A DNA stretch of 47,926 nucleotides from positions 1 to 47,926 of the forward strand of contig RFKQ01000092.1 of the NCBI GenBank assembly GCA_003694635.1, given 5' to 3'. The position numbers and the translations under genes are program-made. Positions 1 through 47,926 of this stretch are shown piece after piece. Source of the stretch: Planctomycetota bacterium (GTDB taxonomy: Bacteria; Planctomycetota; J132). The stretch's first letter is position 1. Every line of letters begins with the position of its first letter. The notes beneath the pieces are model-generated. The model made no database searches, had not been told where the DNA came from, and saw only the letters and a list, made by a program, of their open reading frames with translations.

Positions 1-667
1 AGGCGGCCATATTATCGCAGATAAGGGTGGTTTTCACGCCGTTTTGTTGCAGTTCCCAGGTACTGAGTCTGGCGCCTTGCCAGAGAGGTCGGGTTTCGTC
101 CACAAAGACGGAGATATCTTTTCCTTCTTGGAGGGCGGAGTAGATCACGCCGAGGGCGGTGCCGTAGTTTGCGGTGGCTAGGGCGCCGGCGTTGCAATGG
201 GTGAGGACATTGGCGCGGTGGGGGAGGAGTTTGGCGCCGTGGTAGCCGATTTTTTGGCAGCATTGGAGGTCTTCTTGGAGTATTTGTAGGGCTTTGTTTA
301 GGAGGAGAGGGAGGAGTTTGTTGGTGGGGAGGTGTTGGTTTTGGCGGTAGAGTTTTTCTTGTTGTTGGAGTGCCCAGAATAGGTTGACGGCGGTGGGGCG
401 GGAGTTTTGGAGTTCTTGAAGGACATATGGTAGGGTGATATGTTCGCCTTCTAGGATTTGTCGTGCCCCCAGTACCACGCCGAAGGCGGCGGCTATTCCG
501 ATGGCGGGTGCGCCTCGGACCACCATATTTACGATAGCTTCTTTCACTTCTTGGAAGCGGTGGCAGATTTTATATTCCAGTAGGGTGGGGAGTTTGGTTT
601 GGTTGAGGAGCTTGAGGTGTCCATAGGCGTCTCCCACCCATTCTATGGTGCAGACGGGCAGTTTCAT
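1..667 (-). CDS. mtnA: S-methyl-5-thioribose-1-phosphate isomerase (runs off the window start; not in the ORF track)
   Basis: Manual minus-strand translation from ATG at 667: MKLPVCTIEW...LLNQTKLP...MVVRGAPAIGIAAAFG...DETRPLWQGARL...LICDNMAA, all MtnA motifs. The start overlaps the purC stop (ATGA). Confidence 0.92.
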   Translation of the reverse strand, partial: MKLPVCTIEWVGDAYGHLKLLNQTKLPTLLEYKICHRFQEVKEAIVNMVVRGAPAIGIAAAFGVVLGARQILEGEHITLPYVLQELQNSRPTAVNLFWALQQQEKLYRQNQHLPTNKLLPLLLNKALQILQEDLQCCQKIGYHGAKLLPHRANVLTHCNAGALATANYGTALGVIYSALQEGKDISVFVDETRPLWQGARLSTWELQQNGVKTTLICDNMAA

Positions 668-1581
668 TTTTTTTCCTTTCGGGGGTGAAATCCGGTCCAT
701 TTTTGGCAGAAGAGGAGGTAGCGTTGTGCGATTTCCTCCACAAGTTTGGGGGGAAGTTGGGGAGGGGGGGGGTGGTTATTTTTTTGGAGTTGTCGGCAGA
801 ATCGTTGGAAGGGTTCTCTTTCGTAGGAGAGTTCTAATTCTTGGTGGTTGGGGGTGGATTGGTTGGGTTGGAGTTTCCAGAAGAGGCAATCTCCCTTGCT
901 CAGGGGTTCGCCGATCAGGAGGATATCGCCGTCTAGGAGTCCCCATCGAAAGCGCATTTGTGCTAGGATAAATCCCTTATTTTGGGAGAGTTGTTCTAGA
1001 CATTCGAAGGCGGAGAGGGATTTTTGTTGGATTTCCCAGGTGATTTTATCCCCCACCACTTCTGACATTTGGCTGAGGCCGAGGTAGGGGGTAGAATATT
1101 CTTGGTGAGAGGAGGCGTTGCGGGCGAAGATGACGGGTTCTTCCAGGCGTTCTTGGGGGGTTAGGCCGCGGGGGAGTTTGGTTTTGCGCAGGTAGGGGAG
1201 TTTGGTGTAGGATTGGGTGAGGGTTGGGGGGAGGTAGCGGCAGACCCAGAAATCGATGGGGATCACGCTAGCTTTTTTGACCAGTAGGGTACGGTCTTTT
1301 AGGATATGTCTTGCGTCGCCGAGGTCGGTAGGGATTTTTTCGATATCGGAGGTGAGGTAATGGGTTTTTAGGAAGGATTGGAGGTGTTGATACCAGAGGG
1401 CCAATATTTTGGCGATAGCGATTCCTTTGTAGGGGATGGGATAGGATTGTTGTTGATAGGTGATTTTATCCATGGCGACGAAGAGGAGGCGGTTGTCTAG
1501 GCGGTAGATATCCCAGTGGTTTGTTCGCTTTAGGATACGTACGTTTTGGAGGGTAGTTTCTGTGATAGGAAGGGAGTTCAT
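664..1581 (-). CDS. purC: SAICAR synthetase-like protein (PurC fold, catalytic motifs degenerate)
   Basis: Colinear with PurC (DIY, IPYKG, KTHYL, LVKK, IPID, LPRGL...ERLEEPVIF, KGFILA...F.WG, LPPKLVEEIAQRY), but the GKVR, DRIS, DxKxEFG and DE..TPDSSR motifs are altered. Confidence 0.75.
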   Translation of the reverse strand: MNSLPITETTLQNVRILKRTNHWDIYRLDNRLLFVAMDKITYQQQSYPIPYKGIAIAKILALWYQHLQSFLKTHYLTSDIEKIPTDLGDARHILKDRTLLVKKASVIPIDFWVCRYLPPTLTQSYTKLPYLRKTKLPRGLTPQERLEEPVIFARNASSHQEYSTPYLGLSQMSEVVGDKITWEIQQKSLSAFECLEQLSQNKGFILAQMRFRWGLLDGDILLIGEPLSKGDCLFWKLQPNQSTPNHQELELSYEREPFQRFCRQLQKNNHPPPPQLPPKLVEEIAQRYLLFCQKWTGFHPRKEKK

Positions 1582-1588
1582 AGCGTTT

Positions 1589-2002
1589 TTATTTTAGGTC
1601 TGGTGAGAATTGGGAGGCTCGTTGCCAGAGTTTTTCAATTTTTTTTTCTTGGACAGGGGGTAGTTTTTCGAGTTTAAAGTGATAGGTATGGATATCTTGG
1701 AGGGATAGGGGTAGAAGGATTTCGAACACGAAGTCTAGGGGGAAGATTTCGTAGATAGGGGGTTGGAGTTGGATGTTTTTGACGAGGAGTTGATATCCAT
1801 TTTTTTTCAGGATAATTTCTCGTCCTCCGTAGTGGGTAAATTCGAGGAAGAGGGGGGTTTTTCCTATTCGTTTGCCATCCAGGTAGGCTTCGGCCCCTGG
1901 TGGATCGGAGCGCAGAATGAGGATACGTTCCACGCAGCCGAGGAGGAGGGGGGGGAGAAGCAGGGAGATTTTCCATAATTTTGTGCAGATAGGTTCCTCC
2001 AT
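1589..2002 (-). CDS. PEGA-domain lipoprotein
   Basis: Lipobox LLLGC followed by the PEGA pattern RSDPPGAEAYLDGKRIGKTP...EIILKKNGY. Confidence 0.8.
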   Translation of the reverse strand: MEEPICTKLWKISLLLPPLLLGCVERILILRSDPPGAEAYLDGKRIGKTPLFLEFTHYGGREIILKKNGYQLLVKNIQLQPPIYEIFPLDFVFEILLPLSLQDIHTYHFKLEKLPPVQEKKIEKLWQRASQFSPDLK

Positions 2003-2056
2003 GATGGGAGTGGGTTTAGGCGTAGGGATAAGGTATTTTGAGTTAAGATTTATAGG

Positions 2057-2110
2057 TTGACGAATTTTCTAGAGTTTAAGTATAGATTAGTTTTTTTCAT
2101 GTGTTATAAT
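2057..2110 (+). promoter_or_regulatory. Putative sigma70 promoter(s) for the pnp operon
   Basis: TTGACG-N18-TATAGA (2057-2086) and an extended -10 TGtTATAAT (2102-2110) in an AT-rich divergent intergenic region. Confidence 0.45.
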
Positions 2111-2213
2111 ATAAATATTTCAAAATAACAAGAGAACTTTTAGATTTATCTAAAAAAACGTTAAGATTTTTTAAGATTTTCGAATTATTTTTTTACAAAT
2201 AAGGTAGTTTTGG

Positions 2214-4373
2214 ATGAGTTTAGAGAATTTTGTACATTTATCGAAGCCTTCGAGCTTTAGTTGGGAGGTGGAGGGGGAGAGGATTATGTTTGAGACGGGG
2301 AGGATAGCGAAGCAGGCCAATGGTGCGGTGGTTTTGCGGTATAGGGAGGCCTTTCTTTTAGCAACGGCCACGGCGGCTACTCAGCCGAGTGAGGGGATAG
2401 ATTTTGTACCGTTATCGGTAGAATATCGGGAGAAGTTTGCTTCTGCGGGTAGGATTCCGGGGGGATTTTTGCGTCGAGAGGGGCGCATTACAGACGAGGA
2501 GGTGCTGACTTCGCGTCTGGTGGATAGGTCCATACGTCCGTTATTTCCAAAGGATTATCGTTATGAGACGCAGGTCTTGGTTCATGTATTTAGCACGAGT
2601 GAGGAGTGTGATACGGAGCCGTTAGCGATTTTAGCGGCATCTGTGGCGTTGTATATTTCGGACATTCCTTGGGGAGGGCCGGTGGGAGGAGTTCGGGTGT
2701 GTAGGATTGGGGGGGAGTTTCGTTTATTTTCTTCGTTGCAGGAGAGGGAGAGGGCGGATTTAGATTTGGTGATTTCTTGTTCGCCGGAGGGGTTAATTAT
2801 GTTAGAGGGGGGGGGTAAGGAGGTGGAGGAGAGGGAGGTTTTGGAGGCGATGGAGTTTGCGCAGCGGGGTTTAGTTTCTTTTTTTGAGCGGGTATCTGAG
2901 TGGGGGAAGGAAGTAGGTAGGCCGAAGCGTGCGTTGTTGGAGGATGGGGATAGGGCGGCTGTGGAGGCGAGGGCGGAGGAGATTGGTCGGAGGTGGGAGG
3001 CTTCTTTTGCGGAGGCGTTTGGTTTTTCTGTGAAGAAGGCACGTCGGCAGGCGTTGGAGCGCTTACGAGAGGAGGTTTTGGAGGCGTATAGGGATTTGGA
3101 GGGTGAGGGGTTTGATGCGGGTTTTTGCGCCAAGGCGTTTGAGTTGGCCAAATCGGGTTTTATGCGTGCGCAGATACTTCGTGATCGGCGGCGGATAGAC
3201 GGTCGGGGGATGGGGGAGATCAGGCCGATAGAGGTGGAGGTGGGTATTTTGCCGGGGGCTCATGGCTCTAGTTTATTCACTCGTGGGGAGACTCAGGCGT
3301 TGGTGACGTGTACGTTGGGGATGGAGAGTGAGAGTCAGGTGGTGGAAACGATTTTTGGGGAAGGGCAGCGTTATTTTCTTTTGCATTACAATTTTCCGCC
3401 TTATTGTGTAGGTGAGGTGCGTCCCATGCGCGGTCCGGGTCGGAGGGAGATTGGTCATGGCAATCTTGCTCGGCGTGCGCTGTTGCCGGTGATACCTTCC
3501 CGGGATGCTTTTCCCTACACCATTCGGGTGGTTTCTGACATTACCGAGTCCAATGGTTCGTCGTCCATGGCGACGGTTTGTGGGGCTTCTATGGCGTTGA
3601 TGGATGCGGGGGTACCGATTTCGAAGCCGGTGGCGGGGATTGCGATGGGGTTGGTTTGTGAGGGAGAGGAGGTGGCGATACTTTCGGATATTTTGGGGGA
3701 TGAGGATCACTTAGGGGATATGGATTTTAAGGTGGCGGGGACGAGGGATGGGATCACGGCGGTGCAGATGGACAATAAGTTGGGTTCTGTGGAGCGTTCT
3801 GTTTTGGAGAGGGCGTTGCAGCAGGCTCGGGAGGGTAGGTTGAGCATTTTGGAGACGATGTCAAAGACTCTTGGTGCTCATCGGCAGGAGCTTTCGGAGC
3901 ATGCTCCTCAGGTGGCTTCTTTGCAGATTTGTCCGGAGACGGTTCGTCAGTTGATTGGTCCGAAAGGGAAGACCATTCAGCAGATTCAGCAAGACACGGA
4001 GACCTCCATTGAGGTATCGGAAAACGGGAGGGTTCGGATTTACGGAAGGAGTCGGGCCAGGCTTCAGGAGGCGAGGGAGTTGGTGGAATATCACACGGCG
4101 CAGGTGGAGGTAGGCAAGTACTACGAGGGTGAGGTGAGTTCCATACGGGATTTTGGTGCATTTGTTCGCATATATGCCCATGTAGAAGGTTTGATTCACA
4201 TTTCCGAGATTGATCACAAGAGGGTTCAGGCGGTTGAGGATTATCTTCGGGTGGGAGAGAAGGTGGTGGTGAAGGTTTTAGGAGTGGATAGAAAAGGGCG
4301 CTTGTCCCTCTCTCGCAAGGAGGGGCTGCATATTCAGAAAGAGTGTGTGGAAAATTGGAAGGGTAGAATGTAG
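2214..4373 (+). CDS. pnp: Polyribonucleotide nucleotidyltransferase (PNPase)
   Basis: ETGRIAKQANG, GRIPGGFLRREGR, RLVDRSIRPLFP, HGSSLFTRGETQ, RREIGHG, SNGSSSMA, DILGDEDHLGDMDFKVAGT; KH domain (IGPKGKTI) and S1 domain (DFGAFV). Confidence 0.97.
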   Translation: MSLENFVHLSKPSSFSWEVEGERIMFETGRIAKQANGAVVLRYREAFLLATATAATQPSEGIDFVPLSVEYREKFASAGRIPGGFLRREGRITDEEVLTSRLVDRSIRPLFPKDYRYETQVLVHVFSTSEECDTEPLAILAASVALYISDIPWGGPVGGVRVCRIGGEFRLFSSLQERERADLDLVISCSPEGLIMLEGGGKEVEEREVLEAMEFAQRGLVSFFERVSEWGKEVGRPKRALLEDGDRAAVEARAEEIGRRWEASFAEAFGFSVKKARRQALERLREEVLEAYRDLEGEGFDAGFCAKAFELAKSGFMRAQILRDRRRIDGRGMGEIRPIEVEVGILPGAHGSSLFTRGETQALVTCTLGMESESQVVETIFGEGQRYFLLHYNFPPYCVGEVRPMRGPGRREIGHGNLARRALLPVIPSRDAFPYTIRVVSDITESNGSSSMATVCGASMALMDAGVPISKPVAGIAMGLVCEGEEVAILSDILGDEDHLGDMDFKVAGTRDGITAVQMDNKLGSVERSVLERALQQAREGRLSILETMSKTLGAHRQELSEHAPQVASLQICPETVRQLIGPKGKTIQQIQQDTETSIEVSENGRVRIYGRSRARLQEARELVEYHTAQVEVGKYYEGEVSSIRDFGAFVRIYAHVEGLIHISEIDHKRVQAVEDYLRVGEKVVVKVLGVDRKGRLSLSRKEGLHIQKECVENWKGRM

Positions 4374-5264
4374 ATGGAAGAGAGAAAGCGAAGACGAAAT
4401 TTTTCTCAGAAGGGTTCTTTTTCTTCGAAGCATAGGAAAGGGCGGCCGGGTTTCAAAGTTCAGCGTGGGGCTAAGGGTTGGAGGCGGCGTTCTTCTTCGT
4501 CTCAGCGGCGTCGCTACCGCAGGTCACTTCCTCCCGAGATCAAGGCCAAAGCCGAGCAGTTGATGGAGAAAAATGGTTTGAGCTTTAAGTATGCGGTGGA
4601 GGTGGCGCGGGGACGCAAGAAGCTTCCTGAAGCTCTTCAGGAGATGTTTCAGCGCAGGAAGATGGAGGAGCTGATGAGGAAGCACCGCTTAGATCGGGCG
4701 ATGGCTGGTCAGGTGGTTCATCAGCGTCTTTCTCTGGAGGAGGCGAAGAGGATTGTTCATTTTAAGAGGTTCCGTCGCAAGCATATGCGCACAAGTTGTT
4801 TTACTCTTTCGTACAAGCGGAAGTTAGCGTTTGTTTTTGAGTGCCATGGCCATCGGCGGAATGTGGGTATGGTGGTGGTGGATGATCCTTATGACATTAC
4901 GTTGCAGCTGCAGGGAGAGGAGTTGCGGATGCCGAAGTTGGAGGTGAAGTATTCTTATAGGGAGGAGGAGGCTTCGTTGGTTCAGCCGAAGGTTTCTAGG
5001 GATTTGGAAGTGGTGGAGAAGGGTCTAGGTCCTATCCAGCGCATTTTGGACAGGTATCGGATTAAGGATAGGTTGTTGTTTGATTATTATCTTGCGAGGA
5101 AGCCGGTGCGGTTTACCACGTTGGAGGGGGATGTGTTGGTGGGTAGGATAGTGTGGTTTAACCAGTATGAAATTGGTTTAGATTTGGGGGAGAGGGCTAG
5201 CGTTTATCTTTTGCGTCATGCTCTTTACAGTTGGGAGCAGTTGGAGAATGGAGCGGGAGCTTGA
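4374..5264 (+). CDS. Arg-rich protein with a C-terminal Hfq/Sm-like domain and a probable second degenerate Sm domain
   Basis: aa 231-289 (KDRLLFDYYLARKPVRFTTLEGDVLVGRIVWFNQYEIGL...YLLRHAL) aligns by eye with Hfq ([39 protein letters not shown]...MVYKHAI). The ATG directly follows the pnp TAG. Confidence 0.7.
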   Translation: MEERKRRRNFSQKGSFSSKHRKGRPGFKVQRGAKGWRRRSSSSQRRRYRRSLPPEIKAKAEQLMEKNGLSFKYAVEVARGRKKLPEALQEMFQRRKMEELMRKHRLDRAMAGQVVHQRLSLEEAKRIVHFKRFRRKHMRTSCFTLSYKRKLAFVFECHGHRRNVGMVVVDDPYDITLQLQGEELRMPKLEVKYSYREEEASLVQPKVSRDLEVVEKGLGPIQRILDRYRIKDRLLFDYYLARKPVRFTTLEGDVLVGRIVWFNQYEIGLDLGERASVYLLRHALYSWEQLENGAGA

Positions 5265-6240
5265 GACTTTGCAGAGGCCTTATCGAGAGGTTGGGGTAGA
5301 CGAAGGGAGGGTGATTTCCATACTTCGGGAGGTGATGGATACTTCTTTGTCTCCGCTGCCATCTAATTTTTTTTGTCAGCTTGTTCCTCTTCCTTCTTCC
5401 CTTTCCTCTCGTTCTTCCTATTTGGCTCTTAGTACGGATGGGGTTGGTACGAAGTTATGGTTAGCACTTCAGACGGGTTATTTTCGCCATCTTGGTCAGG
5501 ATTTGGTGGCGATGGTTTACAATGACTTGATCACTTGTGGGGCTCAGCCGCTTGGTTTTTTGGACTATTACGCCGCGGGTGTATTGGAGGAGGGGGTGTA
5601 TCGGGGTATACTTTCTTCCATTCAGGAGGCTTGTTTGGAGGTTCAGATGCCGTTGTTGGGTGGGGAGACGGCACAGATGCCGGGTTTTTATCCGCGTGGA
5701 AGGTTAGATTTAGCGGGGTTTGGGGTGGGGGTGGTGGGTGAGGAGGAGTTATTGGGTCCTCATCGGGTGAGGAAGGGGGATATTTTGGTGGGATTTTCTT
5801 CTTCTGGGTTTCACTGCAATGGTTTTAGTCTTTTGCGGCGATATCTTTCTGAGGGGGAGCTTTATCGGAGTTATACCTTTGGGGGGCGGACGCGTCCGTT
5901 GTATCGTTTTCTTTTGGAGCCGGCTTATTTGTATCGTTGGGTGTTGGAGGGGAGGGAGTTTTTGCGTCCGCTTGCTTTGGCGCATATTACGGGTGGTGGG
6001 ATTTATGGCAATGTGGTACGGGTGTTGCCTTCTTCTTTACAGATGCGTTTGGATGAGGAGGTGATTTGGAGTCGTTCGGAGGCGGAGATATTTTTATGGT
6101 TTGGCAGGTTGGCGGGTTTAACACGTCGGCAGATGCTTGCGATTTTCAATTGTGGGGTGGGGATGGTGGCGGTGTTGCGGGAGCCTAGGGAGGAGGATAT
6201 TGCTAGGTTAGGTGGTTTTGTGTTGGGGGAGGTGATTTGA
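5248..6240 (+). CDS. purM: Phosphoribosylformylglycinamidine cyclo-ligase (AIR synthase)
   Basis: YREVGVD, STDGVGTK, DLVAMVYNDL, FLDYYA, GGETAQMPG, SSGFHCNGFSL, AHITGGG, FNCGVGM. Start chosen at ATG 5248. Confidence 0.93.
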   Translation: MERELETLQRPYREVGVDEGRVISILREVMDTSLSPLPSNFFCQLVPLPSSLSSRSSYLALSTDGVGTKLWLALQTGYFRHLGQDLVAMVYNDLITCGAQPLGFLDYYAAGVLEEGVYRGILSSIQEACLEVQMPLLGGETAQMPGFYPRGRLDLAGFGVGVVGEEELLGPHRVRKGDILVGFSSSGFHCNGFSLLRRYLSEGELYRSYTFGGRTRPLYRFLLEPAYLYRWVLEGREFLRPLALAHITGGGIYGNVVRVLPSSLQMRLDEEVIWSRSEAEIFLWFGRLAGLTRRQMLAIFNCGVGMVAVLREPREEDIARLGGFVLGEVI

Positions 6241-6280
6241 GGGGTTGGGGAGAGTTGGTTTTGGCGGAGGAGCAGGAGTT

Positions 6281-7042
6281 ATGTCCGGTTCGGTGTTAGA
6301 GGTTGTTCAGCTTACTTATGGGTATAAGAAGCCGTTGGGGGAGGGATTAAATTTTTGTTTGCCTTCTTCGTCGTTTTTGGCGGTGATTGGGCCGAATGGG
6401 GTGGGGAAGAGTGCTTTTTTGCGGACGTTGTTGGGGGTAATTGCCCCGTTGCGTGGGGAGGTGAGGTATAGTTTTCCGCTTAGTTGTAGGGCTCAGAACT
6501 TGGCATATTTACCTCAGCATCCTGTACTTCCTCTTGGTTTGAGGGTAGAGGAGGTGGTGGAGTTAGGGAGGTTTCCCCGTAGGCGTTGGGGTTTAGGTGC
6601 TGGAGGTGCTGTAGGGGATCGGGGTGTGGTTTGGGAGGCGATGGAGCGGGCGGGGATTTTGGAGTTGAGGGGTAGGATGGCGTCGCGGATTTCTGGTGGG
6701 GAGCGTCAGAGGATGCACATAGCTCAGTTGCTTGCTCAGGATCCTTGTATTTTTCTTTTGGACGAGCCTTTGACCCATTTGGATTTAGGTCAGCGTTGTA
6801 GGGTTTTGGATCTTTTGGGTAGTTTGCGTGAGGAGGGGAAGGTGGTGGTGGCGACGTTTCATGATCTTGAGGTAGTTTCTTCGGTGGCGGATTGGGTTTT
6901 ATTGTTGAAGCCTGGTGGGGGGTATATATTTGGGGAGGTGGAAGAGGTGTTGAGCTTAGAGCATTTGCGGGAGGCGTTTGGGGATATTTCTTTTTGGGAG
7001 GGATTGGGGGGTAGGTTTAGTTCGTTTTTTGTTCGGAGGTAG
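6281..7042 (+). CDS. ABC transporter ATP-binding protein (iron-siderophore/cobalamin/metal FepC-like)
   Basis: Walker A GPNGVGKS, Q-loop YLPQ, signature ISGGERQR, Walker B LLDEP, H-loop FHD. RBS AGGAG precedes ATG 6281. Confidence 0.88.
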   Translation: MSGSVLEVVQLTYGYKKPLGEGLNFCLPSSSFLAVIGPNGVGKSAFLRTLLGVIAPLRGEVRYSFPLSCRAQNLAYLPQHPVLPLGLRVEEVVELGRFPRRRWGLGAGGAVGDRGVVWEAMERAGILELRGRMASRISGGERQRMHIAQLLAQDPCIFLLDEPLTHLDLGQRCRVLDLLGSLREEGKVVVATFHDLEVVSSVADWVLLLKPGGGYIFGEVEEVLSLEHLREAFGDISFWEGLGGRFSSFFVRR

Positions 7043-7128
7043 TGATGGAATGGTGTGGGGGTGATAGAATATTTTTTCCTATTATAATGGAGAGGTTGTA
7101 CTGCATTGATGGATAAGGTTTTTATTTT

Positions 7129-7695
7129 ATGAGCACCGATAGCGAATTGATTGAGAGGTCACTTCAGGGGGACAAATCTGCGTTTGCTGAGTTGGTGGAG
7201 CGCTATCGGGAGAAGAGCTACTGGATTGCGTACAATATGCTTCACAATTATGAGGATGCGAGGGACATTTCGCAGGAGGCGTTTATTCGGATTTATCGTT
7301 CTTTGGACAAGTTTAATCCGAAGCGTCAGTTTTACACGTGGCTTTATCAGATTGTGGTAAATTTATGCATTGATCATTTGCGCAAGTGGGGGAAGAGGAA
7401 GTCGGTTTCGTTGGAGGAGAATCTTTCGGAGGATCCTCATTTTTCGTCGTCGCCGTATCACACTTTAGAGGAGTATGAGTTATGTGAGGAGGTGCATCAG
7501 ATTTTGAAGAAGATTCCGCCGAAATACAGGAGTGTTTTGATTTTGAGGGATTTGGAGGGGCTTTCTTGCCAGGAGACGGCGGAGATTATTGGTTGTACAT
7601 ATGCCACGGCGCGTTGGCGCTTACATCAGGCGAGGCAGATGTTCCGAGAGCTTTGGGAAAAAAAGCACACTCAATCCTCCTCGAATTCTTCGTGA
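7129..7695 (+). CDS. ECF RNA polymerase sigma factor (SigW/RpoE-like)
   Basis: Region 2: GDKSAFAELVERY, DARDISQEAFIR, FYTWLYQIVVNLCIDHLRK. Region 4.2: LILRDLEGLSCQETAEIIGC...RWRLHQAR. Confidence 0.93.
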   Translation: MSTDSELIERSLQGDKSAFAELVERYREKSYWIAYNMLHNYEDARDISQEAFIRIYRSLDKFNPKRQFYTWLYQIVVNLCIDHLRKWGKRKSVSLEENLSEDPHFSSSPYHTLEEYELCEEVHQILKKIPPKYRSVLILRDLEGLSCQETAEIIGCTYATARWRLHQARQMFRELWEKKHTQSSSNSS

Positions 7696-7722
7696 TATTT
7701 TTGTCAGAGTAGGAAGGTTTGT

Positions 7723-9189: not shown

Positions 9190-9201
9190 GGAGTGTTTAG
9201 A

Positions 9202-10568: not shown

Positions 10569-10642
10569 GGGATTTTGGGGTTTTGGAGAAGTAGGAAATT
10601 TTATTTCCAACTGGAGTCTTGGGGCAGTTCTTGTGCACCCCT

Positions 10643-11290: not shown

Positions 11291-11307
11291 TCCACTGTAC
11301 CTACCAA

Positions 11308-12003: not shown

Positions 12004-12123
12004 CTTTGCTCTCCTTAAAAACAGGTTCTTCAAATACCTCTAGGAGTGTACGGAACGAAAACCAACCACAACACTTCTATCCTACCAATTTATTCGCCAG
12101 ATAGAGAGTTAGATGACAAAAAA

Positions 12124-12915: not shown

Positions 12916-13087
12916 TTTCCACTCCTCAAAACACCGAAATTGTAGAATCCTTCTTAAAAATTTTAACACTTGCAAAAAAATGGCAATCCTTTCGTCTACT
13001 TAAAAAAGTTCACAAAGCATGAATTCCATTTCCACATTTCTTCTTAGCTTGGTCTTGCTAGCCATCTAACGAGAAAGGGAAAGTCCC

Positions 13088-14350: not shown

Positions 14351-14400
14351 TAAAATATCGCAAATAAAACCTTGAAAAAGAAAACATTAGAAAAAAGCGC

Positions 14401-40453: not shown

Positions 40454-40731
40454 CGCAGTATTTCCTGACGATTTTTAAAATCATAAAAAAAGATAACATC
40501 CATTCTCAAAATTCACTTACCATCCAACTCAAAATATAAAAAAAATGGCTATTTTCAACACTCAGGCCTGTTTTTATAAGATAGATCATAGAAAAACGGC
40601 AGTTAGACGGAAACATAATCTTGCAACCAAGATCCTTCTCCTCGCACACTGGAAAATTTCTGAAATATTTTTATCATATCCTCCAGCGCATGAAGAAAAG
40701 CATTTGACCTTGCAGAAGAAGGAGGAAGGCG

Positions 40732-42675
40732 ATGCCTCATCCAAGCGAAATCTCAAATGTTGTGGTCGGTGGAGCTGATCTAAGAGTGGAGGAAATTCTG
40801 GCGGTGAGCAGTTGGGGAGCAACGGTGGAACTGGATGAGGCGGCCATAGAACGAGTGGAGGAATGCCGCCAAGTGGTGGATATCCTTGTAGAGCAAGAGA
40901 CCGTGGCGTATGGGATCAACACAGGTTTCGGTGCCCTGCGGGATAAAACCATTTCCAAGGATTTGGTGAGAAAGCTGCAGAGAAATCTCATCCGCTCCCA
41001 TGCCTGTGGAGTGGGAAAGCCGTTGGGAGAAGATCTAGTTCGGGCAATCATACTTTTGCGCGCCAACACGCTAGCCAAGGGCCACTCCGGGGTGCGATCC
41101 AAGCTCATTCAAGGCTTGTTGGACCTACTCAATCTCAAGATTTATCCCTACATTCCAGAAAAGGGCAGCGTGGGCTCTAGCGGAGATTTAGCTCCTCTTT
41201 CCCACCTTGCGCTGGTGCTAATGGGCGACGAATATGGCCGTTTTCTACCACCTAGTTATGAGAAAAAGGCGGTAAATTCTTGGCGAGATTTTTTGCCTTC
41301 TACCAAAGAAAATCTACGAAAATGCGGATTTACACCTCTGGAGTTGGAGGCCAAAGAGGGTTTAGCCTTAAACAATGGGACTCAGTTTATTGCTTCTGTG
41401 GCGGCGTTTGTACTCTATGAGGCGAAAATCCTTTTAAAAGCAGCGGAATATGCTTTAAGCTTAAGCATAGAGGCAATCCAAGGCGTAAGAGATGTATTTT
41501 CTCCCCAGCTCTATGAGGTGAGAGATCATCCCTATCAAAAGCAGGTTGCCAAGCGAATGCTCGCTTATACAAAGGGAAGTGAGATTTTGAACACTCCGCT
41601 CAATACCGCTTATATCCATCGAAGTATTTTTGAGCTGCAAGAGGCCTACCACTGGCTTGAGGATAAGCACTCTAAAAAGAGACTGTGGGGACTGATAGAA
41701 GATTTAGAAGCCTTTTTGGGTTCTCTATCGCCTGTATCGGAGGGGATATCCTATGAAGAGGGTAGAGGGCTTTTTTTAAAAGATCTTGAGAAGTTGCAAA
41801 GAAGTTTGTTAAATTTGCAAAAGGAATTTTTGTCCAGATTTCAGCAAAAAGATTTTTATAAACTTTCCCAATGCCTTAGCTCGGTGCAAAAAAATCTCTA
41901 CCTCTCCCTTCCCCTCACTCGTCCTGTCCAGGACGATTACTCGTTTCGCTGCGGCTTGCAGGTTTTAGCGGCGGCGTATCAGGCACTGGAGGCCCTGGAG
42001 AGAGTTTGCCATGTGGAATTCAATGGAGCGACGGACAATCCACTGATTTTCGCTCCAAAGCGGAAAGACGCCGAAAAGGGCTCCTATCATTCTTTTTTGG
42101 AGAAAAATCTTCCCCTTTGCGAGAGGGCCATTCTTTCGGGAGGGAATTTTTATGGCGAGCCGTTAGGTTTGGTTTTGGATTATGTCGGGGTGGCTTTGGC
42201 AGAAGTAGGAAATATTGCTGAGAGGCGAGTGGCTCATTTGGTGGATGCAGCGTTGAGCAATGGTTTACCACCTTTTTTAACCCCTCGTGCGGGGGTGGAA
42301 AGCGGTTTTATGATTGGCCAGTACACCGCGGCGGCGTTGGTTTCTGAGAATAAAATCCTTTGCCATCCCGCTTCGTCGGATAGTATTCCCACCAGTGCCA
42401 ACGCAGAAGATCATGTATCTATGGCCTCGATTGCCGCGCGAAAGTGCTTTCAGATTTTGGGCAATGTGCGTAGAATAATTGCCATTGAGTTTTTAGCAGC
42501 TGCCCAAGGAGTGGAGTTTCGCAAACCTTTTTTACCCTCCAAGCAGGGCCAAAAAATTCTAGAAATTCTAAAAGAACACGGCTGGTCACCTCTTCAAGAG
42601 GATCGCCCATTGTACCAAGAAATTGAGAGGGTAGCGGAGTGCATCGCTTTAGAAGCCTTTTCTAATCCAACCTAG
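40732..42675 (+). CDS. hutH: Histidine ammonia-lyase with a large internal insertion
   Basis: YGINTGFG, LIRSHACG, GSVGSSGDLAPL (MIO), KEGLALNNGT, QDDYSFRC, DNP, EDHVSM. Confidence 0.88.
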   Translation: MPHPSEISNVVVGGADLRVEEILAVSSWGATVELDEAAIERVEECRQVVDILVEQETVAYGINTGFGALRDKTISKDLVRKLQRNLIRSHACGVGKPLGEDLVRAIILLRANTLAKGHSGVRSKLIQGLLDLLNLKIYPYIPEKGSVGSSGDLAPLSHLALVLMGDEYGRFLPPSYEKKAVNSWRDFLPSTKENLRKCGFTPLELEAKEGLALNNGTQFIASVAAFVLYEAKILLKAAEYALSLSIEAIQGVRDVFSPQLYEVRDHPYQKQVAKRMLAYTKGSEILNTPLNTAYIHRSIFELQEAYHWLEDKHSKKRLWGLIEDLEAFLGSLSPVSEGISYEEGRGLFLKDLEKLQRSLLNLQKEFLSRFQQKDFYKLSQCLSSVQKNLYLSLPLTRPVQDDYSFRCGLQVLAAAYQALEALERVCHVEFNGATDNPLIFAPKRKDAEKGSYHSFLEKNLPLCERAILSGGNFYGEPLGLVLDYVGVALAEVGNIAERRVAHLVDAALSNGLPPFLTPRAGVESGFMIGQYTAAALVSENKILCHPASSDSIPTSANAEDHVSMASIAARKCFQILGNVRRIIAIEFLAAAQGVEFRKPFLPSKQGQKILEILKEHGWSPLQEDRPLYQEIERVAECIALEAFSNPT

Positions 42676-42743
42676 GGCTGTTTTTCACTTAAGCACAAAA
42701 GTAATTTCAAAACGTTTAAAAGGCGTTTCCAAAAGGCGGTTGT

Positions 42744-45392
42744 ATGAGAAAGCTGGCGGAATGGATTCTAGAGTTTCCCAAAACACTCTTGGGAATTTTT
42801 GTATTTTGTGCCATTGTTTCTGCCTATCTTACAGCGAAGATTCCGTTTGATTTTTCCACAGAATCCCTTTTTGTATCCAACGATCCCCAGAGGCGAATAT
42901 TAGAGAAATTTAAAAAAATTTATGGCAATGATGACAATTTTATTTTCATTGCCTTTGAGCATCCTCATTTATTTAAGTTGGGGATGTTGGAAAAGATTCG
43001 GGAGTTGGAAAAGGATCTGGAAGAGGTGGAGGAAGTGGAGCAGACGTTTTCGTTGGTGGATGTGGTGATGCTAGAGGAGGTGTGGCTAAGCTTTGAGGAG
43101 GTTTTGCGATCGAAGGAGTTGGTGCTTCCGCGGGAGTGGAAGGAGGCCGAGGTGAGGTTGGAACGACTGTTAGAGGATTTTGAGAAGCGCTACCCTCGTT
43201 TTCGCAAGAGAGTGGAGGGAATCCTTTATCGAAATCTTTCCGATGACGCCAAAAAGGCGTTGGCGTCTCAGTTGGCCATGCGATCGATGATGCCGGGGGC
43301 GCCGATTCGTCGCAGCGAAATCTACAAGCAAGTCTATCGCCAGCTTCCCCTAAAAAGAAGGCAAAAGATTCTGAGAGAGATTCTATCCGAAGTGGAGCTT
43401 GCCCCGCTGTTGTACTATTCTGAGCGGCGGCTGGGGAAAGTTTTGGAGCGGATTTTGCGCCAACGTCGTTTACCAAGAAGTCAGAAAAGGCTAGAGCGCA
43501 TTCGACCAAGGGTTTTGAAAAATCGTTTATATGCAAAGAACATCGTTTCTGAGGATGGCAAAAGCACGGGGATTTTGCTGATTTTAAACCCTCATCTTCA
43601 CACCAATGCCAAGCGGGTATTGGTAATAAAGAAAATTCAAGCAGTGTTAGATAAAGACCGCTACCAAGAGCTTGCCCCGTTTTATTTAGCGGGAATTCCC
43701 GTGGTACGTACGGAGTACGCAAGGCTAATTAGCCGGGATCATTTGACATTTTTGCCGATTATTCTTCCCCTATTTTGTTTATTTTTGTATGTGAATTTCC
43801 GCAATTTTTTTCAGATGGTGGTACCTTTGTTGGTGGTGGGGGCGTCGGTAGTTTGGACCTTAGGTTTTATGCAGTTGATGGGGGAGTCGATCAACATACT
43901 TTCCAACGTAATTTACGTTTTAATTTTGGTGATAGGAGTGGCTTCCTCCATCCACGTTATCACGTGTTATAACACTGAGTTAGCGGCTTTTAAAAACAAG
44001 CGAGAGGCTGTGATAAGCACGATGGTGCACATGGGGAAGGCGTGTTTTTTTACATGTTTTACCACCGCGATAGGTTTTCTCTCACTAGCGGTGACGGACA
44101 TTCGCATCATTCGCAGTTTTGGGATTTTTTCTGCCATTGGGGTGATGCTTACCTTTGTAGCGGCGGCGTTTCTTTTGCCCATGGTTTTATTTTTTTTGCC
44201 TCTCCCCAATCTTCGTCGGCAGGAGCAAAACCTGGATCACCGGTTGATTAAACGCATTTTATGGAAGGTAGGTTATTTTAACAGCCGTTATCCTTATCTT
44301 TTGGTGGGTTTTATTTTTTTGCTCACTCTTTTTTGGATATATTTTATTCTGTTTTACTTGGTGATTGACACGCACATGTTGGAGGAGGTATCGGAGACAA
44401 ATCCTGTGGTATTGGCCAATCATTTTGTGGAGAAAAAGTTGGCGGGGGTATTGCCATTGGAGATTTTGCTTAAAGAGAAGCAGCCTTCTCTTTTGAAAAG
44501 GCCGGAGGAGTTAAGGAAGTTGGAGGCGGTGCAGGAGTATATTCGCCAGAAAAAAATGGTTTCTACGGTGGTTTCTTTTGTGGACTTGGTGAAGATGGCC
44601 AATGATTACTTATCCGGGCATTTTGCGGGTGGGGAGAAAGTTCCGGAGGATCCGGCATTGATTTCCAAGCTTTACCATCTTTTGGAGCGATTTTATCAGC
44701 GTAGGGAGTTTGGGGTTCGTCTTCATCACAGGGAGGGGGAGAAGCTAGTGTTGAGAATAACGGCTCGACTGCGTGATGATGGCTCCAATGCGCACTTTGC
44801 GCTGATTCAGGATATTGAGCGTAAGATGAGGGAATATTTTCCCTCTGAGCGGTACGAGATTATCTTCACAGGCGAGCCTCATATGGCGTCGGTATTGATC
44901 AAAAGGTTAGTGCATGGGATGTTGTCGAGTATTTTTTTGGCAGCGGGGATCATTTGCATTGTGATTTTGATTATTTTTCGCTCTTGGAAATTGGCGCTGT
45001 TGAGTATGGTACCGAATATTATTCCGATTATTTTCACATTAGGGATGATGGGTTTATTTGGTTTTGTTTTGCGCACTTCGACGGTGGTGATCTTTAGCAT
45101 TGCTTTGGGGATAGCGGTTGACGATACTATTCACTATTTAATCCGCTACAAGCATATGTTGCAGCGAGGTTTGGGGTACAAGCGGGCGATGTTTCACACG
45201 TTATTGACAACAGGCAAGGCGATGATTTGGACCTCGATTGTGATCTGCAGTGGTTTGTTTGTGCTGATAACTTCGAGTTTTTTAGCCACTTCTGATTTTG
45301 GGATTTTGGGGAGCATTACTTTGCTATCAGCGTTGTTGGGCGATTTGGTTTTATTGCCCGTGTTGTTGTTAATTTTCCGCCCTAGGATGTAG
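42744..45392 (+). CDS. MMPL/RND-family transporter
   Basis: Two repeats of TM1 + loop + 5 TM; FTTAIGFLSL, GIAVDDTIH, TGKAM. Confidence 0.9.
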   Translation: MRKLAEWILEFPKTLLGIFVFCAIVSAYLTAKIPFDFSTESLFVSNDPQRRILEKFKKIYGNDDNFIFIAFEHPHLFKLGMLEKIRELEKDLEEVEEVEQTFSLVDVVMLEEVWLSFEEVLRSKELVLPREWKEAEVRLERLLEDFEKRYPRFRKRVEGILYRNLSDDAKKALASQLAMRSMMPGAPIRRSEIYKQVYRQLPLKRRQKILREILSEVELAPLLYYSERRLGKVLERILRQRRLPRSQKRLERIRPRVLKNRLYAKNIVSEDGKSTGILLILNPHLHTNAKRVLVIKKIQAVLDKDRYQELAPFYLAGIPVVRTEYARLISRDHLTFLPIILPLFCLFLYVNFRNFFQMVVPLLVVGASVVWTLGFMQLMGESINILSNVIYVLILVIGVASSIHVITCYNTELAAFKNKREAVISTMVHMGKACFFTCFTTAIGFLSLAVTDIRIIRSFGIFSAIGVMLTFVAAAFLLPMVLFFLPLPNLRRQEQNLDHRLIKRILWKVGYFNSRYPYLLVGFIFLLTLFWIYFILFYLVIDTHMLEEVSETNPVVLANHFVEKKLAGVLPLEILLKEKQPSLLKRPEELRKLEAVQEYIRQKKMVSTVVSFVDLVKMANDYLSGHFAGGEKVPEDPALISKLYHLLERFYQRREFGVRLHHREGEKLVLRITARLRDDGSNAHFALIQDIERKMREYFPSERYEIIFTGEPHMASVLIKRLVHGMLSSIFLAAGIICIVILIIFRSWKLALLSMVPNIIPIIFTLGMMGLFGFVLRTSTVVIFSIALGIAVDDTIHYLIRYKHMLQRGLGYKRAMFHTLLTTGKAMIWTSIVICSGLFVLITSSFLATSDFGILGSITLLSALLGDLVLLPVLLLIFRPRM

Positions 45393-45539
45393 GAGGAAGC
45401 TGGAGGAGTGTTGAACTTTTTGTTTGGGTTGCTATACTGTTGAGGAATTCAGGTTGGTTTTGGAAGGAGGAGTTTTTTTGTTTTACGAGGAGAAGAGGCT
45501 TGATTGATTTTCATCCTAGAGCTGGGGAGTTGGTGAGAG

Positions 45540-46925
45540 ATGCAAGATATTTTGCGCCATTTGCCGAAGATGGATGAGTTTTTAACTCGGTGGGGGGAGG
45601 AGTTTTCTGCGGAGAGTATCAAATTGGCGGCGAAAAGGGAGCTGGATTGTTTGCGAGAGGAGGTCCTTCGTGGGGAGAGGGAGTGGGATAGGGAGCAATT
45701 GCGCCAGAGGGCTTTTGAGGGGGTACGGGCGCGTTTGGTGGAGTTGGCTCGTCCTTTTCTTCGGGAGGTGATCAATGCCACGGGGATTATTTTGCACACG
45801 GGTTTAGGGCGTGCGGTGTTGCCCTTGGTGGCGCGGGAGGGGTTGGTGGAGTGCGGTGGAGCGGGTTTATTGGAGGTGGACAGACACAGTGGCAAGCGAG
45901 GGGTTCGGGAAAAGGTGGTGGCTCAGCTTTTGTGCGAGCTAACGGGTGCGGAGGCGGCCACGGTGGTAAACAACAATGCGGCGGCGGTTTTATTGGCGTT
46001 GCGGGCTTTGGCGGCGGGGAGGGAGGTGGTGATTAGCCGTGGGCAGATGGTGGAGATTGGGGGGAGTTTTCGCATCCCCGAGGTGATGGCTCAGAGTGGC
46101 TGTATTTTGGTGGAGGTGGGGTGCACCAACCGGACGCATCCGCGGGATTATGAGGAGGCCATTGGGGAAAGGACGGCGTTGTTGTTGGAGGTACATCCGT
46201 CGAATTATCGGGTGGAAGGGTTTACGGCTTCTGTGGACACGAGGACGTTGGTTGAGATTGGTCGTCGGCGGGGTGTGCCGGTAATGTGTGATTTGGGGAG
46301 TGGTTGTTTGGTGGATTTAGAGCGGTATGGACTGCCCCATGAGCCAACGGTTCAGGAGAAGATGGAGAGTGGGGTGGACTTGGCTACGTTTAGTGGGGAC
46401 AAGTTGTTGGGGGGGCCGCAGGCGGGGATTTTGGTAGGGAAGCGTTCGTTGATTGAGAAGGTTCGGCGCCATCCTTTATTTCGGGCTTTGCGTCCGTGCA
46501 AGTTGACGTTAGGGGCGTTGGAGAGGACGTTGAGGGTATATCGTTGTTCTCCCCGTTTGGAGGTAGAGTTGCCGGTGTTGCGGATGTTGACGTTAGGGCA
46601 AGAAGAGATTGCCGAGCGGGTGGAGGCCTTTTGTCAGAGGGTGTCTTCTTGTTGGGAGGTGGAGAGGGTGGAGGGGGTATCTTGTGTAGGGAGTGGGGCT
46701 TTACCGGGGTTGGAGTTGCCGACGGTGTTGGTGTCTTTGCGTTGGCCGGGCAAGTCGGCGGAGGAGGTATCGGGGGCGTTGCGGGGGAGTGAGCCACCGG
46801 TTTTTGGTCGAATTCAGGGGGAGCGGGTGTTATTGGATTTCCGCACCGTTTGGCCTTCGCAGGAGGAGGGCTTATTGTCCGTTTTAAATGGTTTCACGTC
46901 TATGAATTTCCCAAAAGCAAAATAA
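45540..46925 (+). CDS. selA: L-seryl-tRNA(Sec) selenium transferase
   Basis: VINATGIILHTGLGRA, VVNNNAAAV, SRGQMVEIGGSFRIPEVM, EVGCTNRTH, DLGSG, FSGDKLLGGPQAG. Confidence 0.96.
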   Translation: MQDILRHLPKMDEFLTRWGEEFSAESIKLAAKRELDCLREEVLRGEREWDREQLRQRAFEGVRARLVELARPFLREVINATGIILHTGLGRAVLPLVAREGLVECGGAGLLEVDRHSGKRGVREKVVAQLLCELTGAEAATVVNNNAAAVLLALRALAAGREVVISRGQMVEIGGSFRIPEVMAQSGCILVEVGCTNRTHPRDYEEAIGERTALLLEVHPSNYRVEGFTASVDTRTLVEIGRRRGVPVMCDLGSGCLVDLERYGLPHEPTVQEKMESGVDLATFSGDKLLGGPQAGILVGKRSLIEKVRRHPLFRALRPCKLTLGALERTLRVYRCSPRLEVELPVLRMLTLGQEEIAERVEAFCQRVSSCWEVERVEGVSCVGSGALPGLELPTVLVSLRWPGKSAEEVSGALRGSEPPVFGRIQGERVLLDFRTVWPSQEEGLLSVLNGFTSMNFPKAK

Positions 46926-46978
46926 TGGCGAAAGCCGGTTATTGTCCGTTTTAGATGATTTTGTGCTCTAAGAATTTT
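46872..46978 (+). repeat. Direct duplication of the selA 3' end (67-bp period)
   Basis: TTATTGTCCGTTTTA is exact at 46872 and 46939, with further partial similarity over about 38 bp. Confidence 0.75.
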
Positions 46979-47018
46979 GAGTGGGGGGAGGAAGGGGGAG
47001 ATTTTTAAAAATCACCTC

Positions 47019-47046
47019 TTGCCAGAGGGGGAAAATGGATTATAAT
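47019..47046 (+). promoter_or_regulatory. Sigma70 promoter for acpP
   Basis: TTGCCA-N16-TATAAT, preceded by the perfect palindrome GATTTTTAAAAATC (47000-47013). Confidence 0.6.
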
Positions 47047-47138
47047 ACAGCATCTTCTGAAAGTTCTGGTGGATAGGATAGGGAGAGATGTATGTTGTGG
47101 TGGTATACTTAAATTATTTTGATAAGGAGAAGAAAGTT

Positions 47139-47384
47139 ATGTCTGAAGTACGAGAGAAAGCGTTAAAGATCATTTCCAATAGACTTGGTGTACCTGTGGA
47201 GAAGTTGAAGCCGGAGAATGAGTTTATGAAGGACTTGGGTGCGGATTCGTTGGAGATTGTGGATTTGGTGATGGAGTTTGAGGATGAGTTTGAGATCACC
47301 ATTCCGGATGAGGTGGCGCAGAAGATTCGAACGGTAGGTCAGGCGATTGAGCACATTGAGCAAGCGGTGAAGGAAAAGGGCTAA
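47139..47384 (+). CDS. acpP: Acyl carrier protein
   Basis: DLGADSLEIVDLVMEFEDEFEITIPDE; RBS AAGGAG before ATG 47139. Confidence 0.96.
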   Translation: MSEVREKALKIISNRLGVPVEKLKPENEFMKDLGADSLEIVDLVMEFEDEFEITIPDEVAQKIRTVGQAIEHIEQAVKEKG

Positions 47385-47396
47385 AGGGGAGATTTG

Positions 47397-47424
47397 AGCG
47401 GGCGAGAGAGCCCGCTAATTTTTT
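47397..47424 (+). terminator. Intrinsic terminator after acpP
   Basis: AGCGGGC-gagaga-GCCCGCT stem followed by AATTTTTT. Confidence 0.7.
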
Positions 47425-47473
47425 GCTTGTTTGGGTATGTTGTTTAGTGGAGTATGGAAGAGAGATAGAGAAA

Positions 47474-47899
47474 ATGAAGAGACGTGTTGTGATCACGGGG
47501 CTGGGGGTAGTTACGCCGTTAGGGCATCAGGTGGATGTGTATTGGAAGGGGTTATTGGAGGGGGCGAACGCGGTAGATACGTTGCAGAATTTTTCTCCAG
47601 AGCGGTTGTTGGTAAGGTTTGGGGCGGAGATAAGGGGATTTAATCCATTGGATTATTTTAGCAAATCCGAGGCAAATCGGATGGATAGGGTGAGTCATTT
47701 TGCGGTTGTGGCGGCGATGTCTGCGATAGAGGACAGTGGGCTTGAGTTGGAGAAGATGGTGGGATTTAGGAACAGAATCATCCATCGGTATTGGGAGGTA
47801 GATTTGGAAGAAGTGTATAGGATCTTCAAGGAGCGTATCGAAGACTTTAAGCGCTTTGAAAGGGAAATCATCAGGTTCATAGAGAGGCTACCTGATTGA
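47474..47899 (+). pseudogene. fabF: Truncated fabF (N-terminal ~94 aa) fused in frame to the C-terminal half of a HepT/DUF86 RNase
   Basis: MKRRVVITGLGVVTPLG...RMDRVSHFAVVAAMSAIEDSGL is FabF; from ~47756 MVGFRNRIIHRYWEVD is the HEPN R-X4-H-X-Y motif. No FabF catalytic Cys/His region is present. Confidence 0.8.
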
Positions 47900-47926
47900 C
47901 CCAAACCAAGTAAGGATGTGCTTCAG

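Follow-up and report, generated by a model that had tools for sequence, protein, structure and literature searches.

Strand skew that switches with chromosomal position in a Planctomycetota genome, and its polar steps at a family of hairpins

Strand skew is the standard computational read-out of bacterial chromosome replication, and a single origin is assumed for bacteria. Contig RFKQ01000092.1 of the Planctomycetota assembly GCA_003694635.1 (GTDB lineage Bacteria; Planctomycetota; J132) raises the question of how the composition of the two strands can change sides twice within 48 kb. The whole contig of 47,926 nucleotides is referred to below as the window. An earlier note on the window had described its extreme skew and had named four options: an inversion of about 30 kb, an unusual replication mode with closely spaced initiation and termination zones, a strand-specific mutational process acting in domains, and misassembly. 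The window is an entire contig (C2) of a metagenome-assembled genome (MAG) that comprises 158 contigs and 2,523,738 bases and is 66.8% complete and 0.24% contaminated.

Strand skew along the window and the genome

The plus strand of the window consists of a G/T-rich, a C/A-rich and again a G/T-rich domain, and this three-domain pattern, as described in the earlier note, was reproduced both in 1-kb windows and at third codon positions. When all sites are counted, GC skew in 1-kb windows ranges from +0.30 to +0.54 at 1-11 kb, from -0.01 to -0.50 at 11-40 kb and from +0.03 to +0.46 at 40-47 kb, with the AT skew as its mirror image. The base counts that had been made by hand for four 60-nt lines proved exact when back-calculated from GC fraction and skew (G29/C6 in the line starting at position 1201, G33/C5 at 6601, G4/C25 at 23521, and G3/C38 at 28081). 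Third codon positions show the strongest skew (up to 0.87), exceeding that of positions 1 and 2. Third-position GC skew lies between +0.55 and +0.91 through 10.54 kb, is -0.28 in the following bin, reaches about -0.8 by 22 kb (minimum -0.82), crosses zero at about 40.5-40.7 kb and attains +0.77 by 46.5 kb. Within a block, genes on both strands carry a common plus-strand sign, in agreement with the earlier statement that the skew tracks position and not the direction of transcription.

The two switches of the window are unlike each other, and only the first of the two positions given earlier was confirmed as a step. Its change point lies at 10584 (interval of 2 units of log-likelihood support, 10559-10589), the drop spans about 30 nt, and in model fits the best single step falls at 10559 and a ramp model is worse. 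A further, smaller step is present near 16.1 kb. The second switch is not a step but a ramp that extends over approximately 37.5-45.5 kb: the log-likelihood is -3074.5 for a ramp model with four parameters, compared with -3116.3 for one step and -3080.8 for two steps. An aromatic amino-acid lyase gene (HAL) that lies inside the ramp is intact (Pfam E = 1e-163).

A total of 54 sign flips were identified within contigs over 2,460,325 bases of the genome (2-kb windows; range from below -0.6 to above +0.6), and 21 of the 33 contigs longer than 25 kb contain at least one. The ordinary situation considered in the earlier note, a genome with only two flips, is therefore not that of this organism. Complete internal blocks measure from about 1 to 29 kb, the block of the window being the longest, and stricter criteria leave 38 strong sign changes (21 upward and 17 downward). 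The GC and AT skews at third positions are anticorrelated among genes (r = -0.88, 1633 open reading frames, ORFs). ORFs with a G-rich coding strand number 647 and those with a C-rich one 681, so that the skew is not linked to transcription and genes are not in excess on the G-rich strand. Intergenic DNA follows the third-position skew of the flanking genes (r = 0.87, slope 0.48, 454 gaps). Orientation-corrected GC skew at codon positions 1 and 2 ranges from about -0.3 to +0.3 and follows the local third-position skew, so that protein composition depends on the location of the gene. Among relatives at the level of the phylum, nine loci of 2.6-3.9 kb all have an absolute GC skew of at most 0.06. 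Overall, the skew is real, genome-wide, dependent on position, independent of gene strand and present in intergenic DNA, and the signal is mutational and not a product of artefact or codon usage.

Deamination of C and A on an exposed single strand is established chemistry. At four-fold degenerate sites on the G-rich strand of saturated genes (70,359 sites), the composition is G 0.604, T 0.231, A 0.111 and C 0.054. C and A are thus depleted much as in mitochondria, in a direction that would agree with deamination of these two bases on an exposed strand.

Large jumps in skew number 61 across the genome, and 37 of them lie no more than 100 nt from an ORF boundary, compared with 21% expected by chance. 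A further 15 of the 61 lie at least 250 nt inside ORFs, including intact LigA and TopA genes and a PPDK-like gene, each with its full set of domains, and ramps of 3-20 kb traverse intact genes. When all sharp steps are counted irrespective of hairpins, the excess of upward over downward steps is not significant (41/32, 30/17, and 21/12 up/down; p = 0.35, 0.08, and 0.16).

Misassembly, as suggested for the window in the earlier note, is not supported. A Logan contig, produced by another assembler from the same run, spans positions 10003-17000 without a joint and at even depth (14.6-20.9), and the 10.6-kb junction thus is not a chimera of one assembly. The comparison was made with contigs rather than raw reads, at one depth figure per contig, and because both assemblies derive from the same read set it rules out an assembler-specific misjoin but not every error. 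A search for repeats at the window switches returned only composition-driven matches of low identity and none at 10.6 kb or 37-46 kb, and no inverted repeats, insertion sequences (IS) or mobile elements were found there. Assembly chimeras, mixed bins or chemical library damage are accordingly regarded as a highly improbable source of the pattern. The MAG is a fragmented short-read assembly of approximately 17-19x depth, and many of its contigs end in arrays of the hairpins described below, which would favor such a source; however, ramps and switches within genes cannot be misjoins, the sharp junction is bridged by the second assembler with no joints reported, and fold-back flanks were found at 0 of 104 hairpin loci. 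Chemical conversion or damage would strike every codon position and would not spare protein sequence, whereas the skew is concentrated at third positions and the ORFs are intact, with Pfam E-values that reach 1e-163.

Relaxation of skew and a family of hairpins

The question of chromosomal rearrangement was put as a choice between a single inversion and a REARRANGEMENT mosaic. A single inversion of about 30 kb, the simplest option of the earlier note, is not supported: an inversion should have two sharp, intergenic edges, and the edge at 10.58 kb is of this kind but the other is an 8-kb ramp across the intact HAL, MMPL and SelA genes, in a genome with dozens of flips. For a mosaic, the quantity examined is hysteresis. 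After a strand switch, the keto skew K (G+T vs. A+C) recovers by transitions, whereas the purine skew R (A+G vs. C+T) needs transversions. The strain-level differences between the MAG and the Logan contig consist of 9 transitions and 3 transversions. When a rate model is fitted to the composition at equilibrium, it gives R = -0.22, -0.32 and -0.37 (the old sign) at the point where K crosses zero, for transition:transversion ratios of 1, 3 and 6, respectively.

Across 1043 genes the observed relation is R = 0.48 K, with a residual standard deviation that is flat (0.115-0.145 in all bins of |K|). Purine skew is opposite in sign by more than 0.10 in only 9 of 700 genes with |K| of at least 0.3, and |R| of at least 0.25 is found in only 18 of 225 genes with |K| below 0.2. 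The genes within the ramp of the window and the weak-skew genes fall on the same R-K line, and the skew at codon positions 1 and 2 scales with that at position 3, the spread being constant. There is no hysteresis, R being proportional to K, which indicates that intermediate skews are at or near equilibrium and do not represent segments in transit.

A repeat family was spotted in the gaps that adjoin sharp upward steps. The units are approximately 60 nt long and consist of extragenic palindromes of 25-30 nt, such as GGAACCTTTTT-loop-AAAAAGGTTCC, and a spacer, often in arrays. The family comprises 134 loci by blastn and 148 perfect hairpins in 104 loci (140 loci in the union; for example C85:10236-10415 and C39:12434-12707), and one hairpin pattern has 52 exact matches but 0 in a reversed control. 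Many of the loci are located at contig ends, showing that they break the assembly. The third-position skew on the right of a hairpin locus minus that on the left is at least +0.3 in 30 of 90 loci and at most -0.3 in 2 of 90, compared with 58 upward and 47 downward cases among 613 control gaps (hairpins vs. controls, Wilcoxon p = 9e-9). Based on the perfect-hairpin definition, 20 of 67 loci step upward and 3 downward, and an all-site measure that makes no use of ORFs gives 23 upward and 3 downward steps among 96 loci, with an observed mean that was reached by 0 of 2000 nulls with shifted positions. The association was recognized post hoc, yet it holds under two definitions and a permutation control. 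Because the polarity of a step is invariant under reverse complementation, inversions or misjoins predict equal numbers of upward and downward steps.

The upward bias is present in convergent, divergent and both tandem arrangements of the neighboring genes, and transcription was rejected as a cause of the hairpin steps since the step is seen in all four arrangements. On contigs C70 and C98 the skew forms a sawtooth, with an upward reset at one array after another and relaxation over 1-2 kb, and 7 of 11 gradual downward switches within genes lie just to the right of an array. In the far flanks, the skew on the right exceeds that on the left by more than 0.4 at 16 of 57 hairpin loci, and the reverse is true at 4 of 57.

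Among 400 other genomes sampled from the phylum, a single one (G393) carries the same hairpin, with 171 exact pattern sites. This genome has a GC content of about 62% and a GC skew of at most 0.18 in the two 3-kb stretches examined (loci L108 and L110, for example, carry the hairpin); the hairpin was not found in the other sampled members of its family (f39). The combination of the hairpin with ordinary skew in this genome indicates that the hairpin alone does not make the skew. A comparison of the window and three hairpin-bearing loci with Rfam gave 0 matches at the gathering score. The Y1_Tnp profile has one match in the MAG (C99:8282-8554, 28-29 bits against a cut-off of 23), approximately 2 kb from dnaA.

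The replication and repair genes dnaA and dnaE (one copy each), dnaG, mutS (two copies) and UDG (uracil-DNA glycosylase, two copies) are present in the MAG, and loss of uracil repair, mismatch repair or primase was rejected as a cause of the skew on account of the two UDG, the two MutS and the DnaG. Endonuclease V was not found in this 67%-complete genome and is also absent from 7 of 14 control genomes. Skew on contig C99 changes from about -0.5 to about 0 near dnaA and then stays near 0 for 12 kb, as far as the 67%-complete genome reveals. A separate observation on this contig is that dnaA, mutS and the Y1 transposase-like gene lie within approximately 6 kb of each other in a stretch (C99:1-17203) that is unusually free of skew for this genome.

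Features, genes and source of the window

The blocks, switches and repeats of the window are listed in table 1. The near-palindrome GAAATTTTATTTC on the abrupt step has its exact copies at C2:10595, C118:16627 and C111:472, with the skew on the left exceeding that on the right at each, and a copy with one mismatch lies within the interval of the down-step on contig C21. Apart from this 13-mer, no motif common to the 17 sharp down-steps was found. The association of GAAATTTTATTTC with down-steps is anecdotal, because two of the three copies came from the discovery set, and the numbers are small and the observation post hoc.

Table 1. Skew blocks, switches and repeats in the window (keto3 and GC3, keto and GC skew at third codon positions).
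Feature	Position	Strand	Skew and other evidence	Genes
G/T-rich saturated block	1-10568		keto3 skew +0.67; GC3 skew +0.55 to +0.91	IF-2B-like, SAICAR synthase, RluD-like (-); PNPase to asparaginase (+); from Pfam
Abrupt down-step (+ to -)	10559-10642			Spacer between RluD-like 5' end and methyltransferase stop, both genes (-)
13-nt near-palindrome GAAATTTTATTTC on the step	10595-10607	+	3 exact copies in the genome	
Weakly C/A-rich, lower-GC block	10643-16100		keto3 skew -0.27; GC 0.36-0.45 (1-kb windows)	Methyltransferase, three ORFs without Pfam match, Ser/Thr kinase; from Pfam
Strongly C/A-rich block	16100-37500		keto3 skew -0.52; GC3 skew -0.4 to -0.8	NadC to 1332-aa protein (+); decarboxylase to CdaA (-); EF-G (+)
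Hairpin-family copy	23944-24022		blastn; left/right skew -0.61/-0.58, no step	Between convergent genes
Second hairpin-family copy, GGAACCTTTTT-loop-AAAAAGGTTCC	34466-34508		left/right skew -0.49/-0.46, no step	
Upward ramp (- to +)	37500-45500			Crosses intact YfhO-like (-), aromatic amino-acid lyase (+), MMPL transporter (+)
G/T-rich block again	45500-47926		keto3 skew +0.55; GC3 skew +0.69 to +0.77	SelA and a short ORF

The stretch of lower GC content and weaker skew that follows the first switch spans 10643-16452 and carries the methyltransferase gene, the three ORFs without Pfam match and the Ser/Thr kinase gene (683 aa). This stretch may be an acquired island that abuts the sharp step, and the step at 10.58 kb may also be the edge of an insertion or a rearrangement. 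At the start of the kinase ORF (14442-14461), the MAG and the Logan contig of the same run differ by three omitted bases and five substitutions within 20 nt, a cluster that suggests strain microdiversity or a local difference in assembly.

The genes of the window are bacterial (among them PNPase, an ECF sigma factor, CdaA, GlnRS, EF-G and SelA), its ORFs are intact, with Pfam matches for 26 of 34; across the genome, long ORFs cover 88% of the sequence. SelA (selenocysteine synthase) is encoded at 45540-46925 (E = 9e-136), and the organism thus probably makes selenoproteins. The ORF of 1332 aa (19913-23911) has an ion-transport domain at residues 341-465 as its sole Pfam match. An ORF of 158 aa at the end of the contig (47423-47899) has partial matches to the N-terminal domain of beta-ketoacyl synthase and to a HepT-like RNase and may be a spurious or fused reading frame.

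A single public run contains the window (0.98 of sampled words). It is labeled as a hot springs metagenome and may be the source sample of the MAG; in other runs of the same study (X2 and X3), next to none of the window words were found. The composition of the proteome (IVYWREL fraction 0.420) corresponds to an estimated growth optimum near 59 C under what we take to be the appropriate conversion formula. The nearest 30 genomes in GTDB all share no rank below the phylum with the MAG, and the RluD-like protein is at most 47% identical to its counterparts in them and at most 37% identical to those in metagenome contigs. EF-G shows 53-58% identity to proteins from several phyla, with Poribacteria, Myxococcota, Thermomicrobiales and Actinomycetota among the matches listed. 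The organism is best regarded as a moderate thermophile whose replication genes are those usual in bacteria.

Candidate causes, known systems and significance

The remaining two options of the earlier note, in which initiation and termination zones lie close together or a strand-specific mutational process operates domain by domain, are favored by the hysteresis and hairpin results, with the direction of replication as a presumed cause. The account that we tentatively adopt, at a likelihood somewhat short of even, is a deamination-type pressure of single-strand exposure that acts in place and switches direction many times along the chromosome. Whichever strand is more frequently single-stranded would lose C and A and gain G and T, and the sign and strength of the pressure would be a property of the chromosomal place, at or near compositional equilibrium, changing by steps and ramps at intervals of a few kb to tens of kb. 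The exposed strand may be the lagging-strand template or another long-lived single strand. If it is the lagging-strand template, the sign of the skew would report the local direction of synthesis, and the predominant direction of replication-type synthesis would have to switch many times. Upward switches would then have the polarity of origins (initiation) and downward switches that of termini (termination), with dozens of zones instead of one ori/ter pair; alternatively, the pattern may imply priming linked to hairpins. The hairpin family would mark a good share of the upward switches and reset the skew locally over 1-2 kb, and such steps would suit arrays that initiate synthesis as well as arrays at which the lagging strand is preferentially primed. 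For the window, this account would place a convergence of forks or exposure at 10.58 kb and a divergence over 37.5-45.5 kb. An argument from exposure times would predict the side of the reset in both skew backgrounds, but not an overshoot past zero. A more far-reaching version of this account is possible but doubtful: the chromosome would not be copied from one origin, and long-lived single-strand synthesis would start at dozens of sites or zones, some of them marked by hairpin arrays (as true origins, as break- or recombination-primed starts or through OriL-like priming), with deamination at about 59 C recording its direction at kilobase resolution.

Several observations weigh against an in-place pressure tied to the direction of synthesis. 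Transitions are equally wide in both directions (median 3133 nt upward and 2911 nt downward, p = 0.60), so that a picture of sharp origins and broad termini fails, and the window, with its sharp down-step and broad up-ramp, has the reverse polarity of that picture. Away from hairpins, sharp upward and downward steps are equally common (21 vs. 16, with 250 sites per side), and this equality, together with the clustering of jumps at ORF boundaries, is what would be expected of breakpoints of rearrangements or insertions. About half of the arrays have no step, both window copies included, and no hairpin lies at either switch of the window. Within 1-2 kb, some local resets run past zero, a behavior poorly explained by canonical origins or by simple priming. 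The ratio R/K is 0.35-0.40 in weak-skew genes, compared with 0.48-0.51, and some of these genes may therefore be young or imported. The hysteresis test itself presumes that transitions relax faster than transversions and uses a simple model, and a burst of very recent inversions would escape it. The replication and repair genes are an ordinary set in which nothing points to an unusual replication mode, and no DnaA-box clusters were found at up-steps (9 clusters genome-wide, each of exactly 3 near-consensus boxes, none of them at a step). Furthermore, the MAG is 67% complete, its ORF calls are crude and the relatives are too distant for synteny.

A serious rival, although on balance judged rather unlikely, is a mosaic of rearrangements in a chromosome with one origin and one terminus, an extreme strand bias and many inversions, translocations and insertions, in which blocks differ in age and the effect of the hairpins is separate and local. 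Skew anomalies caused by inversions are well known, as the 'Anomalies' part of SkewDB records (PMC8941118). The enrichment of sharp steps at ORF boundaries, the balance of upward and downward steps away from hairpins and the intergenic position of the 10.58-kb step, followed by a lower-GC block with ORFs that lack Pfam matches, all agree with such a history. One-third of the genes, however, have intermediate keto skew and yet a purine skew on the equilibrium line, where the model predicts |R| of 0.2-0.37 with the old sign, and a steady supply of inversions should leave many discordant segments of middle age, in contrast to the few discordant genes counted above. Ramps that cross intact genes over 3-20 kb and the lack of inverted repeats or IS elements at the window switches likewise do not fit, and the 30:2 polarity at hairpins cannot arise from inversions.

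That polarity, as of synthesis running away from a site, would also be produced by strand exposure that is domain-wise but not replicative, such as break-induced or recombination-dependent synthesis from the arrays in a polyploid thermophile, long-patch repair or single-strand uptake, with no role for fork direction. This explanation is considered improbable. It can draw on the near-equal numbers of genes on the G-rich and C-rich strands, which are unusual if fork direction has long been fixed, on a reset length of 1-2 kb, at the scale of repair or Okazaki fragments, and on the presence of the Y1 (HUH) transposase-like gene; on the other hand, saturated blocks of 10-40 kb demand a very regular process, resection at double-strand breaks, proceeding 5' to 3', should give the opposite polarity, and we know of no such process that dominates substitution in any bacterium. 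Still less probable is a chromosome with one origin and terminus in which the arrays are preferred sites of lagging-strand priming, similar to mitochondrial OriL or a plasmid single-strand origin, and the template downstream is covered quickly. Such priming would explain the sawtooth and the extreme skew, and its Okazaki-like reset of 1-2 kb is as observed. In a negative background the minimum lies just left of the array and the reset just right of it, and in a positive background the left side is depressed, both patterns being those that exposure times during Okazaki synthesis from the array should produce. The resets, however, pass zero to reach +0.5 or +0.6, beyond what protection alone can produce, about half of the arrays (including the two in the window) are stepless, and G393 combines 171 copies with ordinary skew in two 3-kb stretches. 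Sign flips would, moreover, need rearrangements, so that the absence of hysteresis counts against this explanation as well.

The skew of G and T against C and A between strands is of the classical kind, but its amplitude, the number of switches, the ramps, the equilibrium behavior and the hairpin polarity are not. As in the classical pattern of two replichores, G and T are enriched on a common strand irrespective of gene direction, most strongly at third positions and also in intergenic DNA. The amplitude, however, is approximately ten times the usual one, (G-C)/(G+C) being 0.3-0.5 at all sites and as high as 0.9 at third positions; the sign changes dozens of times instead of twice (and twice in this 48-kb contig alone), ramps are present and a leading-strand gene bias is not. 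SkewIT is reportedly also associated with skew anomalies from inversion and misassembly. The typical bacterial skew is given as about 2.5% by SkewDB's own measure, and the anomalies from inversion, insertion or misassembly to which a part of that source is devoted share the local flips and the sharp edges at gene boundaries with the present genome (PMC8941118). They differ from it in that here no hysteresis between fast and slow components is found, ramps run through intact genes, steps at a repeat family are polar and the junction is bridged by a second assembly.

Vertebrate mitochondrial DNA has a deamination gradient on the displaced heavy strand and a stem-loop OriL. The near-total loss of C and A at four-fold sites of one strand, the graded skew and the discontinuities at stem-loops are common to both systems, whereas the genome studied here is bacterial, measures at least 2.5 Mb and carries dnaA, dnaE and dnaG, and its skew changes sign many times, with a putative role for hairpins. 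Mammalian chromosomes have skew 'N-domains' and profiles of fork directionality at the megabase scale, and a sawtooth-like skew that rises in steps at particular sites and falls off in between is found here too, but over kb to tens of kb, with a far larger amplitude and with upward and downward transitions that are equally wide overall. The ~140 extragenic loci of one palindrome family resemble REP/BIME elements. In such systems a single-copy Y1 HUH transposase (RAYT) is flanked by REPs, and the one Y1_Tnp-like gene of the MAG (29 bits) is a candidate for this role.

In cyanobacteria with irregular GC skew the skews are weak, whereas the present genome combines an extreme amplitude with sharply resolved domains. 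Within bacteria, the nearest precedent found is the Microgenomates bacterium Ch65 from a deep thermal aquifer (Kadnikov et al. 2020, PMC7143001): one strand has 29.83% C and 14.97% G, genes are distributed 449/389 between strands, the disparity has a single sign along the chromosome and does not extend to A/T, and its authors propose unidirectional replication. Both are bacteria of thermal habitats with an extreme G/C disparity unrelated to gene strand, but in the present genome strong skew extends to GC and AT alike, and its sign changes dozens of times. Bacterial chromosomes that lack the skew pattern of two replichores are also found among cyanobacteria whose GC skew is irregular and whose initiation is DnaA-independent or multi-site (PMC7198777). 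A literature search, in which subscription journals were not covered, identified, among the papers listed, no described link between REP elements and skew steps and no bacterial genome with extreme multi-domain skew.

The skew of this chromosome is thus as extreme as that of animal mitochondria, changes sign every few tens of kb, is apparently at equilibrium and is polar with respect to a hairpin family. For the annotation of such genomes there is a practical warning, in that checks for misassembly and searches for origins that are based on skew would fail on them. If the pattern is a mosaic of rearrangements, the genome would still be an exceptional system for rates of amelioration and rearrangement, with a signal approximately ten times stronger than usual. 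If it records the direction of replication, this would be the first bacterium with multiple initiation zones similar to those of eukaryotes, or with long-lived single-stranded intermediates primed at hairpins, and its skew profile would amount to a natural map of bacterial fork direction, averaged over evolution.

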